From Enterobacteria phage FrSaffron: a stretch of 3,552 bases of DNA. Shown here in pieces: positions 130 to 3,398 of the stretch. The stretch lies in the sequence record PP430141.1. One strand, 5' to 3'. The stretch's first letter is position 1. Each line of letters starts with the position of its first letter. A program made the translations under genes and the position numbers. A model generated the notes under the pieces. That model ran no database searches, was not told where the DNA came from, and was given only the letters and a program-made list of their open reading frames with translations.

Positions 130-1311
130 ATGCGAGCTTTTAGTGTCCTTGATAAGGAATCCGAGACCTTTGTTCCTTACGTCCGCGTTTACGCTGACGG
201 AGGGATTGAGGATAACTCGTTTTCTCTAAAATACCGTTCGAACTGGACTCCTGGTCGTTTTAAGTCGACTGGGGCCAGAACGAAGCAGTGGCACTACCCG
301 TCTCCCTACTCTAGGGGGGCGCTTAGCGTCACGTCGGTAGATCAAGGCGCCTATAAGCGCTCAGGGTCATCGTGGGGTCGCCCGTACGAGGAGAAAGCCG
401 GTTTTGGCTTCTCGCTCGACGCACGCTCCTGCTACAGCCTCTTCCCTGTTAGTCAGAATCTGACTTACATCGAAGTGCCGCAGAACGTTGCGAATCGGGC
501 GTCGACCGAAGTCCTGAAAAAGGTTACCCAAGGCAATTTCAACCTTGGTGTGGCCTTAGCAGAGGCTAGGTCGACAGCCTCACAACTCGCGACGCAAACC
601 ATTGCGCTCGTGAAGGCGTACACTGCCGCTCGTCGCGGCAACTGGCGCCAGGCGCTCCGCTATCTCGCCCTAAACGAAGATCGAAAATTCCGATCAAAAC
701 ACGTGGCCGGCAGATGGTTGGAGTTGCAGTTCGGCTGGCTACCGCTCATGAGCGATATCCAGGGCGCATATGAGATGCTTACGAAGGTCCACCTTCAAGA
801 GTTTCTTCCTATGAGAGCCGTGCGTCAAGTAGGCACTAACGTCAAGTTAGACGGCCGCTTGTCGTATCCAGCTGCAAACTACCAGACTACGTGCAACATA
901 TCGCGACGAATCGTGATATGGTTTTACATAAACGATGCACGCTTAGCCTGGTTGTCGTCTCTAGGTATCTTGAACCCACTAGGAATAGTGTGGGAAAAGG
1001 TGCCTTTCTCATTCGTTGTCGACTGGCTCCTTCCTGTTGGAAACATGCTCGAGGGCCTTACGGCCCCCGTAGGATGCTCCTACATGTCTGGAACAGTTAC
1101 TGACGTAATAACGGGTGAGTCCATTATAAGCGTTGACGCTCCCTATGGGTGGACAGTGGAGAGACAGGGCACTGCTAAGGCCCAGATCTCAGCCATGCAT
1201 CGAGGGGTACAATCCGTATGGCCAACAACTGGCGTATACGTAAAGTCACCTTTCTCGATGGTCCATACCTTAGATGCGTTAGCATTAATCAGGCAACGGC
1301 TCTCAAGATAG
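130..1311 (+). CDS. mat: Maturation (A / assembly) protein, the pilus-binding minor virion protein
   Basis: 393-aa ORF starting MRAFS..., ending with TAG at 1309-1311. Position, length and sequence match the MS2 A protein as I recall it. Strong SD upstream. Confidence 0.93.
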   Translation: MRAFSVLDKESETFVPYVRVYADGGIEDNSFSLKYRSNWTPGRFKSTGARTKQWHYPSPYSRGALSVTSVDQGAYKRSGSSWGRPYEEKAGFGFSLDARSCYSLFPVSQNLTYIEVPQNVANRASTEVLKKVTQGNFNLGVALAEARSTASQLATQTIALVKAYTAARRGNWRQALRYLALNEDRKFRSKHVAGRWLELQFGWLPLMSDIQGAYEMLTKVHLQEFLPMRAVRQVGTNVKLDGRLSYPAANYQTTCNISRRIVIWFYINDARLAWLSSLGILNPLGIVWEKVPFSFVVDWLLPVGNMLEGLTAPVGCSYMSGTVTDVITGESIISVDAPYGWTVERQGTAKAQISAMHRGVQSVWPTTGVYVKSPFSMVHTLDALALIRQRLSR

Positions 1312-1324
1312 AGCCCTCAACCGG

Positions 1325-1347
1325 AGTTCGAAGCATGGCTTCTAACT
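1325..1347 (+). promoter_or_regulatory. Coat-gene initiator hairpin with the AUG in the apical loop
   Basis: Seen in sequence: AGTTCGAAGC (1325-1334) pairs with GCTTCTAACT (1338-1347) with one C/U mismatch (1329/1343). The loop is AUG (1335-1337), the coat start codon. This matches the known MS2 coat initiation hairpin. Confidence 0.7.
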
Positions 1348-1727
1348 TTACTCAGTTTGTTCTCGTCGACAATGGCGGAACTGGCGACGTGACTGTCGCA
1401 CCAAGCAACTTCGCTAACGGGGTCGCTGAATGGATCAGCTCTAACTCGCGCTCTCAGGCTTACAAAGTAACCTGTAGCGTTCGCCAGAGCTCTGCGCAGA
1501 ACCGCAAATACACCATCAAGGTCGAAGTGCCAAAAGTGGCTACCCAGACCGTTGGTGGTGTAGAGCTTCCTGTAGCCGCATGGCGTTCGTACTTAAATAT
1601 GGAATTAACTATTCCTATTTTCGCAACGAACGCCGACTGCGCGCTTATTGTTAAGGCGATGCAAGGTCTCCTGAAAGATGGAAACCCAATCCCCTCAGCA
1701 ATCGCAGCAAACTCCGGAATCTATTAA
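1335..1727 (+). CDS. cp: Major coat (capsid) protein, also the translational repressor of the replicase gene
   Basis: ATG at 1335 begins MASNFTQFVLVDNGGTGDVTVAPSNFANGVAEWISSNSRSQAYKVTC...SGIY (130 codons). It ends with tandem stops TAA (1725-1727) and TAG (1728-1730). Sequence is recognisably MS2-type coat. Confidence 0.95.
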   Translation: MASNFTQFVLVDNGGTGDVTVAPSNFANGVAEWISSNSRSQAYKVTCSVRQSSAQNRKYTIKVEVPKVATQTVGGVELPVAAWRSYLNMELTIPIFATNADCALIVKAMQGLLKDGNPIPSAIAANSGIY

Positions 1728-1905
1728 TAGATTCCGGCCATTCCAACATGAGGATTACCCATGTCGAAGACAACAAAGAAGTTCAACTCTTTATGTATTG
1801 ATCTTCCTCGCGATCTTTCTCTCGAAATTTACCAATCAATTGCTTCTGTCGCTACTGGAAGCGGTGATCCGCACAGTAGAGACTTTACAGCAATTGCTTA
1901 CCTAA
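1678..1905 (+). CDS. lys: Lysis protein L (single-gene lysis protein), overlapping the coat 3' end and replicase 5' end in the +1 frame
   Basis: 75-aa ORF METQSPQQSQQTPESINRFRPFQHEDYPCRRQQRSSTLYVLIFLAIFLSKFTNQLLLSLLEAVIRTVETLQQLLT. It has a polar, basic N-terminal half and a hydrophobic C-terminal segment (LYVLIFLAIFL...LLLSLL). Coordinates match the MS2 L gene as I recall it. Confidence 0.88.
   Translation: METQSPQQSQQTPESINRFRPFQHEDYPCRRQQRSSTLYVLIFLAIFLSKFTNQLLLSLLEAVIRTVETLQQLLT
1714..1737 (+). repeat. Perfect 24-nt palindrome / RNA hairpin spanning the coat stop codons (coat terminator hairpin)
   Basis: Seen in sequence: CCGGAATCTATTAATAGATTCCGG equals its own reverse complement. As RNA it is a 9-10 bp stem with the coat UAA (1725-1727) and UAG (1728-1730) in and next to the loop. 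Confidence 0.85.
1746..1764 (+). promoter_or_regulatory. Replicase translational operator (TR hairpin; coat-protein binding site and packaging signal)
   Basis: Exact ACATGAGGATTACCCATGT: stem 1746-1750/1760-1764, bulged A1751, pairs 1752-1753/1758-1759, loop AUUA 1754-1757. The replicase AUG (1761-1763) lies within the stem. Identical to the canonical MS2 operator. Confidence 0.92.
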
Positions 1906-3398
1906 GGGATGAGTTGCTTACTAAGCACCCGTCCTTAGGAAACGGTAATGACGAGGCGACCCGCCGGGCTCTAGCTATCGCTAAGCTCCGGGAGGCGAAT
2001 GAGCGTTGCGGCCAGATTAACAGAGAAGGTTTCTTACATGACAAATCCTTGTCATGGGATCCGGATGTTTTACAAACCAGCATCCGTAGCCTAATTGGCA
2101 ACCTTCTCTCTGGCTACCGCTCGTCGTTGTTTGGGCAATGCACGTTCTCCAACGGTGCCTCAATGGGGCACAAGTTGCAGGATGCAGCGCCTTACAAGAA
2201 GTTCGCTGAACAAGCAACCGTTACCCCCCGCGCTCTGAGAGCGGCGCTACTGGTCCGAGACCAGTGTGCGCCGTGGATCAGACACGCGGTCCACTACAAC
2301 GAGTCATATGAATTTAGACTCGTGGTAGGGAACGGAGTGTTCACAGTTCCGAAGAATAATAAAATAGATCGGGCTGCCTGTAAGGAGCCCGATATGAATA
2401 TGTACTTACAGAAGGGAGTCGGTACCTTTATAAGGCGCCGTCTCAAATCTGTGGGTATAGACCTGAATGATCAAACGATCAACCAGCGTCTAGCTCAAAA
2501 GGGTAGCGTAGATGGTTCGTTGGCGACGATAGACTTATCGTCAGCCTCCGACTCCATCTCCGACCGCCTGGTGTGGAGTTTCCTCCCACCTGAGCTATAT
2601 TCATATCTTGACCGCATCCGCTCTCACTACGGAATCGTAGATGGAGAGACGATACGGTGGGAACTATTTTCCACTATGGGTAACGGGTTCACTTTCGAGC
2701 TAGAGTCCATGATATTTTGGGCAATAGTGAAAGCGACCCAGATCCATTTTGGTAACGCCGGAACCATAGGCATCTACGGGGACGATATTATATGTCCCAG
2801 TGAGATTGCACCCCGTGTGCTAGAGGCACTTGCCTACTACGGTTTCAAACCGAATCTTCGTAAAACGTTCGTGTCAGGGCTCTTTCGCGAGAGCTGTGGC
2901 GCGCACTTTTACCGTGGTGTCGATGTCAAACCGTTTTACATCAAGAAACCAGTTGACAACCTCTTCTCCCTTATGCTGATCATGAATCGGCTTAGGGGTT
3001 GGGGAGTTGTCGGAGGTATGTCAGATCCGCGCCTTTATAAGGTTTGGGTACGACTGTCCTCCCTGGTTCCATCGATGTTCTTCGGTGGGACGGACCTTGC
3101 TGCCGACTACTATGTAGTCAGTCCCCCTAATGCGGTCTCAGTTTACACTAAGACTCCATACGGGAGACTACTCGCGGACGCCCGTACCTCGGGTTTCCGT
3201 CTTGCTCGTATCGCAAAAGAGCGTAAGCACTTTAGCGAGAAGCATGACAGTGGTCGCTACATAGCATGGTTCCATACTGGAGGTGAGATCACCGACAGTA
3301 TGAAGTCCGCTGGCGTACGCGTAATGCGTACTTCGGAGTGGCTGACGCCGGTTCCCACATTCCCTCAGGAATGCGGGCCAGCGAGCTCTCCTCGGTAG
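1761..3398 (+). CDS. rep: RNA-dependent RNA polymerase (replicase beta subunit)
   Basis: 545-aa ORF MSKTTKKFNSLCIDLP... ending with TAG at 3396-3398. The catalytic YGDD motif is encoded at 2775-2786 (IGIYGDDIICP). The start codon is embedded in the operator hairpin. Confidence 0.95.
   Translation: MSKTTKKFNSLCIDLPRDLSLEIYQSIASVATGSGDPHSRDFTAIAYLRDELLTKHPSLGNGNDEATRRALAIAKLREANERCGQINREGFLHDKSLSWDPDVLQTSIRSLIGNLLSGYRSSLFGQCTFSNGASMGHKLQDAAPYKKFAEQATVTPRALRAALLVRDQCAPWIRHAVHYNESYEFRLVVGNGVFTVPKNNKIDRAACKEPDMNMYLQKGVGTFIRRRLKSVGIDLNDQTINQRLAQKGSVDGSLATIDLSSASDSISDRLVWSFLPPELYSYLDRIRSHYGIVDGETIRWELFSTMGNGFTFELESMIFWAIVKATQIHFGNAGTIGIYGDDIICPSEIAPRVLEALAYYGFKPNLRKTFVSGLFRESCGAHFYRGVDVKPFYIKKPVDNLFSLMLIMNRLRGWGVVGGMSDPRLYKVWVRLSSLVPSMFFGGTDLAADYYVVSPPNAVSVYTKTPYGRLLADARTSGFRLARIAKERKHFSEKHDSGRYIAWFHTGGEITDSMKSAGVRVMRTSEWLTPVPTFPQECGPASSPR

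Follow-up and report, generated by a model that had tools for sequence, protein, structure and literature searches.

A perfect 24-nucleotide palindrome at the coat stop codons of phage FrSaffron is very probably its version of the conserved coat-stop hairpin of MS2-like phages

The stretch of DNA analyzed here (the window) is a 3,552-nt near-complete genome of a levivirus, FrSaffron, which belongs to the MS2-like phages of the Baym-lab collection (PMC12169576). Its gene coordinates are the same as those of MS2 (Table 1), relative to which it is without the last 17 nt. It is 92.4% identical to the MS2 reference genome, and its best matches among deposited genomes, at ~94.9% identity, are FrHenna, FrBlood, and an isolate from Chinese human stool. 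The element studied here, positions 1714 to 1737, takes in the final four sense codons of the coat gene together with its stop codon, and in the lysis (L) reading frame it corresponds exactly to codons 13 to 20. It occupies the position of its MS2 ortholog, covering the end of coat and both stops, with the Min Jou 3' strand immediately after it and the replicase operator ~9 nt farther 3'; genome identities of 92 to 95% to relatives, with the same coordinates and flanks as MS2, support this orthology. The operator (TR) hairpin itself forms in both the 71-nt context fold and the whole-genome fold, is covered by a match to Rfam family RF02359 at 1729 to 1764 (60.6 bits, E = 4.7e-13), and is unchanged in the 13 aligned isolates except fr, in which A replaces the loop base U1756.

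Table 1. Genes and RNA features of the FrSaffron window, in order of position
Feature	Position	Strand	Details
Maturation gene	130-1311		
Coat gene	1335-1727	+	ATG 1335, stop 1725-1727; coordinates as in the annotated MS2 record
Min Jou 5' strand, GAAUGG	1428-1433	+	Within the coat gene
Lysis (L) gene	1678-1905	+	+1 frame; from the open reading frame list and per-strain translation; protein identical to FrSaffron WZB35604.1
Hairpin 5' arm, CCGGAAUCUA	1714-1723	+	Coat Ser127-Gly128-Ile129-Tyr130; L codons 13-16
Covarying base	1718	+	Third base of coat Gly codon GGN; second base of L codon 14; pairs with 1733
Tetraloop, UUAA	1724-1727	+	Last base of the Tyr codon (U1724; C in MS2) and the coat UAA
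Coat stops	UAA 1725-1727, UAG 1728-1730	+	Tandem
Hairpin 3' arm, UAGAUUCCGG	1728-1737	+	Opens with the second stop, UAG; outside coat; L codons 17-20
Covarying partner	1733	+	Second base of L codon 19 (Phe, Arg, Cys, Ser, or Tyr among isolates)
Min Jou 3' strand, CCAUUC	1738-1743	+	Pairs with 1433-1428 in the whole-genome minimum free energy (MFE) fold
Replicase operator (TR) hairpin	1746-1764	+	Bulged A1751, loop AUUA, replicase AUG 1761
Replicase gene	1761-3398	+	

The original prediction described the element as exactly self-complementary over 24 nt, and direct reading of the window letters bears this out: CCGGAATCTATTAATAGATTCCGG is equal to its own reverse complement. No other perfect palindrome in the window comes close (the runner-up measures 12 nt), and a length of 24 nt was reached in 1 of 2,000 first-order Markov shuffles of the window. 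The MS2 counterpart had been given as CCGGCATCTACTAATAGACGCCGG, which is the exact NC_001417 sequence, internal A.C mismatch included, and from which the window hairpin differs at four positions (C1718A, C1724T, C1732T, and G1733T). The surroundings had also been described correctly, with tandem coat stops, a lysis AUG at 1678, 47 nt upstream of the coat stop, and the Min Jou 3' strand at 1738 to 1744.

As RNA, 20 of the 24 nt can pair. Because the central UUAA is a tetraloop, the self-complementarity of these four nucleotides is without structural meaning. Three of them (U1725, A1726, and A1727) are dictated by the UAA stop, so that the palindrome required only a U at 1724. The change C1724U leaves the coat protein unaltered (TAC to TAT, Tyr), replaces threonine with isoleucine in L (T16I), and is common to the window, J20, and the German isolate LT898437. 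Since the stop codon and one synonymous C-to-U change produce the self-complementary loop, the perfect 24-nt DNA palindrome is incidental to what is a 20-nt stem plus a loop. Extra pairing from the central TTAA was considered and rejected, as a 2-nt loop is impossible and the energy gain nil. A role at the DNA level, as a restriction site or double-stranded palindrome, was likewise rejected, the phage being an RNA phage.

Positions 1714 to 1737 fold as a 10-bp stem closed by the UUAA tetraloop (−13.7 kcal/mol, z = −4.7). Pairing of 1714-1723 with 1737-1728 was found in local folds, in the whole-genome MFE structure, in the partition function, and in the RNAalifold consensus, which recovered the hairpin unguided from the 13-isolate alignment; the mean pair probability of the stem was 0.97 in the partition function ensemble for 1284 to 1830, and the tetraloop was single-stranded in every fold. 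The original prediction had allowed that this region might instead be paired elsewhere in the MFE structure. The hairpin is retained both beside the operator hairpin in the 71-nt context fold and in the MFE fold of the whole 3,552-nt RNA.

We compared the hairpin in a gap-free alignment to 12 isolates at identical coordinates, and the stem occupies the same 10 positions in all of the Emesvirus zinderi isolates compared. J20 (EF204939) carries the identical 24-mer (−13.7 kcal/mol) and is the sole exact match in the phage collection; the two phages are also identical across the stretch 1710 to 1745 but differ at 1709 (C in J20, A in the window), and their genomes are ~94.6% identical elsewhere. 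FrHenna, FrBlood, and Hu-Sh have the window's stem beneath a CUAA loop, again at −13.7 kcal/mol. Among the remaining isolates, DL1 has a G.U wobble at 1717/1734 (−10.8 kcal/mol); DL16, DL52, and DL54 have lost the closing pair through G1737U (−11.4 kcal/mol); LT898437 has G-C at 1718/1733 and U.G at 1721/1730 (−13.5 kcal/mol); and JP501 has U-A at 1718/1733. The extremes are R17, whose C-G at 1718/1733 and A-U at 1719/1732 give the strongest stem (−15.9 kcal/mol), and M12, which has a C.A mismatch at 1718/1733 (−9.2 kcal/mol). MS2 and ST4 share an A.C mismatch at 1719/1732 (−11.5 kcal/mol). The stem is free of mismatches in 9 of the 13 isolates compared, with DL1 and the German isolate reaching this by way of G.U wobbles. 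The A.C mismatch is limited to the MS2/ST4 tip of a neighbor-joining tree built without the hairpin columns, and on this tree it is the derived, outlying state. Because M12 tolerates its C.A mismatch and MS2 its A.C mismatch, full stem stability is not essential.

Searches for further variants reached little beyond these isolates. Two scans of viral contigs for hairpin variants returned only one lab-type MS2 contig, and an L-protein homology search showed no environmental diversity beyond the GenBank isolates; the latter search brought up JP501, the source of the U-A pair, and FrSaffron itself. A metagenome scan with the operator 18-mer was set aside: of its 30 loci, one was MS2, equivalent to the lab strain, and the rest were chance-like, ribosome-binding-site-like matches in unrelated contigs.

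Compensatory change within the stem, as originally proposed, is genuine: C1718A is accompanied by G1733T, and C1732T mends the A.C mismatch of MS2. At 1718/1733 the pair is A-U in the window, J20, FrHenna, FrBlood, Hu-Sh, DL1, and DL16, C-G in MS2 and ST4 as in R17, and, in the three isolates described above, G-C (LT898437), U-A (JP501), or the C.A mismatch (M12). The covariation score for this pair was 0.095, compared with 0.033 ± 0.011 in column shuffles, none of 500 of which reached the observed value, and it was at most 0.037 when the partners were slid by 1 to 3 columns. The neighbor-joining tree calls for three or more independent switches with compensation, for which the C.A of M12 is a plausible intermediate. 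Covariation is limited to this one pair, which can covary because 1718 is a free third position in coat and 1733 lies outside coat. Conservation at most other stem positions is uninformative about structure because coat codons and stop codons pin them. Selection maintains pairing, not sequence.

The consequences of this pairing extend into the lysis protein. The N-terminal half of L is dispensable, and the stretch around residue 19 appears unconstrained, since that residue is Phe, Arg, Cys, Ser, or Tyr among the isolates. The combinations at residues 14/19 (A/R, A/C, E/F, G/S, V/Y, and A/Y) are radical changes, for which RNA pairing is the only sensible explanation. The G.U wobbles of DL1 (1717/1734) and LT898437 (1721/1730) suggest that the plus strand is the selected molecule. 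The original proposal is supported in this respect: the plus-strand RNA has a functional hairpin where coat translation terminates, and the Min Jou partner follows it directly.

The element, its fold, and its contact with coat protein have already been described for MS2, and the exact sequence has already been deposited. In earlier work, the hairpin was named stem-loop V or SL-1 (PMC4751978) and TR-1 (bioRxiv 10.1101/2021.08.10.455819). Rolfsson et al. (2016) predicted stem-loop V/SL-1, lying 5' of the operator, to be a packaging signal and located a CLIP peak for coat protein at nt 1741, in the interval from SL-1 to TR (PMC4751978). X-ray footprinting showed TR-1 to be folded both in the virion and in the free transcript (bioRxiv 10.1101/2021.08.10.455819). 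The MS2 hairpin (NC_001417, 1714 to 1737) has the same coordinates, flanks, and 10-position stem as that of the window; in both, the loop contains UAA and the 3' arm UAG, and the hairpin abuts the Min Jou 3' strand. The two differ at 1718/1733 (A-U in the window, C-G in MS2), at 1719/1732 (A-U versus A.C), and in the loop (UUAA versus CUAA), and the window stem is ~2.2 kcal/mol more stable. We consider it very likely that the palindrome is the FrSaffron version of the conserved plus-strand coat-stop hairpin of the MS2-like phages (Emesvirus zinderi). It is an ordinary natural variant of a known hairpin and represents no new adaptation.

More distant relatives show how far the arrangement extends. 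Phage fr (X15031; genome ~76% identical) also has a coat-stop hairpin, at approximately nt 1715 to 1736, with CCAUUCC (the Min Jou strand) and the operator following closely on its 3' side. In fr, however, the register is shifted, the weaker stem consists of 4 bp, an AA/AA internal loop, and 3 bp beneath an ACUA loop, and the Min Jou strand begins after a 2-nt spacer. GA (NC_001426) has a stable stem-loop at 1683 to 1707, at the 3' end of coat and shortly before the operator, which is annotated as possibly controlling lysis. Unlike the window hairpin, it ends before the stop is reached and is unrelated in sequence, and the GA coat stop overlaps the L start (UAAUG). The closest comparison within the genome is the neighboring stem-loop TR (RF02359), whose tetraloop also ends in A and which also binds a coat dimer in the virion (PMC9023274). 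TR differs from the coat-stop hairpin in its bulged A, its AUUA loop, its 7 bp, and its inclusion of the replicase AUG. Rfam holds no family for the coat-stop hairpin; its MS2 operator model begins at 1729 and does not cover the element.

High-affinity MS2 coat-protein operators, as defined in the Uhlenbeck and Stockley work, have a tetraloop of consensus A-N-Py-A (A at −4, a pyrimidine at −5, and a purine at −7) and a bulged purine, A-10. The coat-stop hairpin has A at −4 but A at −5 and U at −7, and its perfect 10-bp stem has no counterpart of the A-10 bulge two pairs below the loop. It is without the operator recognition features, and any contact with coat protein would therefore be of low affinity or cooperative. 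In the 3.6-Å cryo-EM structure of the MS2 virion by Dai et al. (2017), 15 stem-loops are reported to be visible in contact with coat dimers; the list given in PMC9023274 includes nt 1720 to 1731, which cluster with 1747 to 1763 (TR) and 1776 to 1791 on three neighboring dimers, an arrangement that the paper describes as conducive to nucleating assembly. Nucleotides 1720 to 1731 are the apical four pairs and the loop of the hairpin. By analogy with MS2, for which this docking has been shown, the apical stem-loop of FrSaffron would dock on a coat-protein dimer beside the one that binds the operator and thereby belong to a cluster of three loops proposed to nucleate capsid assembly; we judge this reading of the FrSaffron hairpin to be, on balance, probable. 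Adding the two flanking loops of TR raised in-cell packaging from 48% to 57%, and an MS2 insert that was intact except for deletion of TR and its two flanks was packaged no less than before (PMC12377776), the latter result indicating redundancy. A paper on MS2 cheater mutants contains nothing on positions 1718 to 1744.

The hairpin may also serve its other neighbor, the long-distance Min Jou helix, previously placed at 1427-1433/1738-1744 (PMC11339067). In the whole-genome fold, the closing pair C1714-G1737 directly abuts this helix with no spacer, and the operator follows. Pairing of the Min Jou strands has a probability of ~0.87 in the partition function; C1744 is unpaired in the window, whereas MS2 has an A1744-U1427 pair. 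When the 3' arm was shuffled so as to break the stem (n = 40), predicted Min Jou pairing fell from 0.87 to a mean of 0.18, and compensating changes in the 5' arm restored it to 0.88 whatever the sequence. This design confounds loss of the hairpin with release of a 5' arm that is complementary to the Min Jou strand: in the window's clade, GGAAU of the 5' arm can pair with AUUCC at 1740 to 1744. Control shuffles in the window gave 0.18 when the 5' arm alone was shuffled and 0.36 for both arms, and the corresponding values in the MS2 background were 0.27 (3' arm), 0.36 (5' arm), and 0.58 (both arms). Because scrambling both arms is milder in effect, part of the loss is due to competition from the freed arm. 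In this modeling, which is thermodynamic only and omits coaxial-stacking terms, the hairpin thus tends to protect Min Jou pairing, in part by tying up arms that are prone to mispair. Natural support comes from DL16, DL52, and DL54, in which G1737U costs the hairpin its closing pair and gives U1737 a predicted partner in A1434 (P = 0.85), so that the Min Jou helix is lengthened.

A mechanism along these lines would begin with the folded hairpin sequestering two arms that would otherwise mispair, while sitting against a marginal 6- to 7-bp Min Jou helix that closes the replicase ribosome-binding site. Each ribosome completing coat would melt the hairpin, and fast local refolding would help to restore the closed state. 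Such a guarding role is compatible with coat docking, and the modeling leaves us evenly divided as to whether the hairpin plays it. A stronger version, in which the hairpin is an obligatory partner of Min Jou that decides closure of the replicase ribosome-binding site and the two helices coevolve as one unit, seems to us doubtful but worth entertaining. Examples of such coevolution would be the G1737U change in DL16, DL52, and DL54, by which a base pair passes from the hairpin to the Min Jou helix, and the disappearance of U1427-A1744 pairing from the C1744 clade.

A different regulatory function was also weighed, in which the hairpin mainly governs termination-dependent expression of L, for example through refolding that biases a terminated ribosome toward the L AUG, 47 nt upstream, versus the replicase AUG, 34 nt downstream. 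The positions of the two stops, UAA within the loop and UAG within the 3' arm, fit this idea, as does the dependence of L translation on coat termination, for which both unfolding and scanning models have been discussed (PMC12548453, citing Berkhout 1987 and Adhin & van Duin 1990). Phage fr too has a hairpin over the stop, and the GenBank record of GA marks its coat 3'-end stem-loop with "pot. function in lysis gene control." However, the GA hairpin lies upstream of a stop that overlaps the L start, so that the geometry is not conserved; published models put the regulatory structure around the L start rather than the stop; and no experiment in the accessible literature assigns the hairpin such a role. 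The natural variants, with stems anywhere between −9.2 and −15.9 kcal/mol, are not known to show any lysis phenotype. We therefore regard lysis control as an unlikely principal function of the hairpin. The original prediction that hairpin strength could change lysis reinitiation finds no linking evidence, the accessible literature crediting coat termination and structure at the L start.

The same prediction held that the window hairpin had been specially sharpened into a longer, perfect stem, which would adaptively alter both lysis reinitiation and replicase repression. Set against MS2 alone, this has some appeal: the stem gains ~2.2 kcal/mol (−13.7 versus −11.5) through C1732U, and 1718/1733 is compensated. 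Set against the other isolates, it is highly improbable. J20 has the same palindrome, the stem and its energy recur in FrHenna, FrBlood, and Hu-Sh, and most of the stems compared are free of mismatches, so that it is MS2, with a mismatch that is derived on the tree, that is the oddity. Nor is the stem longer, its span being constant in the Emesvirus zinderi isolates compared and its energy falling in the middle of the range between M12 and R17, the latter being stronger. The C-to-T change assigned to the loop-proximal stem is in fact C1724T, the first loop nucleotide, and has no effect on energy, as the equal value for the CUAA loop of FrHenna shows. Replacing the window stem in silico with that of MS2 left predicted Min Jou pairing (0.87) and operator pairing (0.90) unchanged.

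Two further readings carry still less weight. Coat codons and the tandem stops fix much of the stem, and the self-complementarity of the loop is incidental, which could be taken to mean that the palindrome arose by chance or as a by-product of overlapping coding, with no RNA function. This is scarcely credible given the rarity of such a palindrome in shuffles (1 in 2,000 reaching 24 nt), the occurrence of all four Watson-Crick types at 1718/1733 with radical changes at unconstrained L residues, and the detection of the hairpin by footprinting (bioRxiv 10.1101/2021.08.10.455819) and, as listed in PMC9023274, by cryo-EM. Least credible of all is action in the minus strand, for example as a replicase signal, or at the double-stranded level: a perfect palindrome does yield the same hairpin sequence on its complement, but the G.U wobbles of DL1 and LT898437 turn into C.A mismatches there, the A.C of MS2 and C.A of M12 are not mirrored favorably either, and no supporting literature was found.

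What emerges for the MS2-like phages is a conserved plus-strand hairpin in which a single stem pair carries all four Watson-Crick types, textbook-quality covariation among natural isolates that adds to the probing and cryo-EM by which this hairpin is usually justified. The N-terminal sequence of L, at residues 14 and 19, simply tracks RNA pairing. The modeling, together with the boundary shift of the DL16 type, suggests that the hairpin is coupled to the Min Jou switch that governs replicase translation. If the hairpin were indeed an obligatory partner of that helix, natural variants of the stem would tune expression of the replicase, not lysis.

The hairpin at the coat stop codons directly abuts the 3' strand of the Min Jou helix, the long-range pairing that shuts the replicase ribosome-binding site, and a single substitution appears able to move the boundary between them. 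In the related phages DL16, DL52 and DL54, G1737U breaks the closing pair of the hairpin, and the folding model joins U1737 to A1434 instead (P 0.85). In that model the hairpin would lose a base pair and the adjoining Min Jou helix would gain one.

Coordinates of the RNA elements and of the overlapping gene
Feature	Position	Detail
Lysis protein (L) gene	1678-1905	
Coat-stop hairpin	1714-1737	10-bp stem
Hairpin 5' arm segment	1716-1720	GGAAU
Hairpin loop	1724-1727	UUAA
AUUCC, first copy	1731-1735	hairpin 3' arm
AUUCC, second copy	1740-1744	Min Jou 3' strand
Min Jou 5' strand	1427/1428-1433	
Min Jou 3' strand	1738-1743/1744	CCAUUCC
Replicase operator hairpin	1746-1764	
Coat-stop hairpin of fr	about 1715-1736	ACUA loop

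The far end of the Min Jou strand varies as well. Because the window carries CCAUUCC in place of the CCAUUCA of MS2, the U1427-A1744 pair is lost and a 6-bp helix remains; restoring it in silico (C1744A) raised Min Jou pairing in the window from 0.87 to 0.98. C1744 is common to the window, fr and most of the window's clade, and A occupies this position in MS2, R17, M12, JP501 and DL1. In the window's clade AUUCC is present twice, and the GGAAU arm could therefore pair with either copy, a latent alternative pairing, suggested by sequence complementarity, that is lacking in MS2, where the corresponding arm is GGCAU.

The loop change C1724U, at the position equivalent to -7 in the coat-binding motif, was found in three isolates: the window, J20 and the German isolate LT898437. 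These were not grouped together in a poorly resolved neighbor-joining tree, which may mean that the change arose more than once, that it spread by recombination or that the tree resolves too little. The hairpin of fr adopts a shifted register with an AA/AA internal loop, and its loop is closer than the CUAA of MS2 to the coat-binding consensus A-N-Py-A.

Among the records of the phage collection searched, which did not include the FrSaffron record, the highest identity to the window was 94.9%; the 3' end of MS2 reaches 17 nt beyond the window's last base. A set of 29 unrelated metagenome contigs, which includes several near-duplicates, carries the operator 18-mer ACATGAGGATTACCCATG without mismatch, and the copies usually lie directly upstream of an ATG-initiated open reading frame; these are probably chance occurrences of a string resembling a ribosome-binding site plus ATG in a very large collection.

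The window's L protein is identical to WZB35604.1 (FrSaffron). The L-protein search also returned a 114-aa protein joining a Microviridae lysis domain (PF04517) to the C terminus of MS2 L; it has the appearance of an artificial E-L fusion. Two further hits, truncated MS2 L fragments from Listeria assemblies, resemble contamination from a vector or a spike-in.

Read in the L frame, the hairpin begins and ends on codon boundaries and covers L codons 13 to 20, eight in all. Residues 14 and 19 occur in the combinations A/R, A/C, E/F, G/S and V/Y, and their apparent “covariation” is purely a by-product of RNA pairing. These RNA-driven changes show that the N-terminal part of L is under little constraint.
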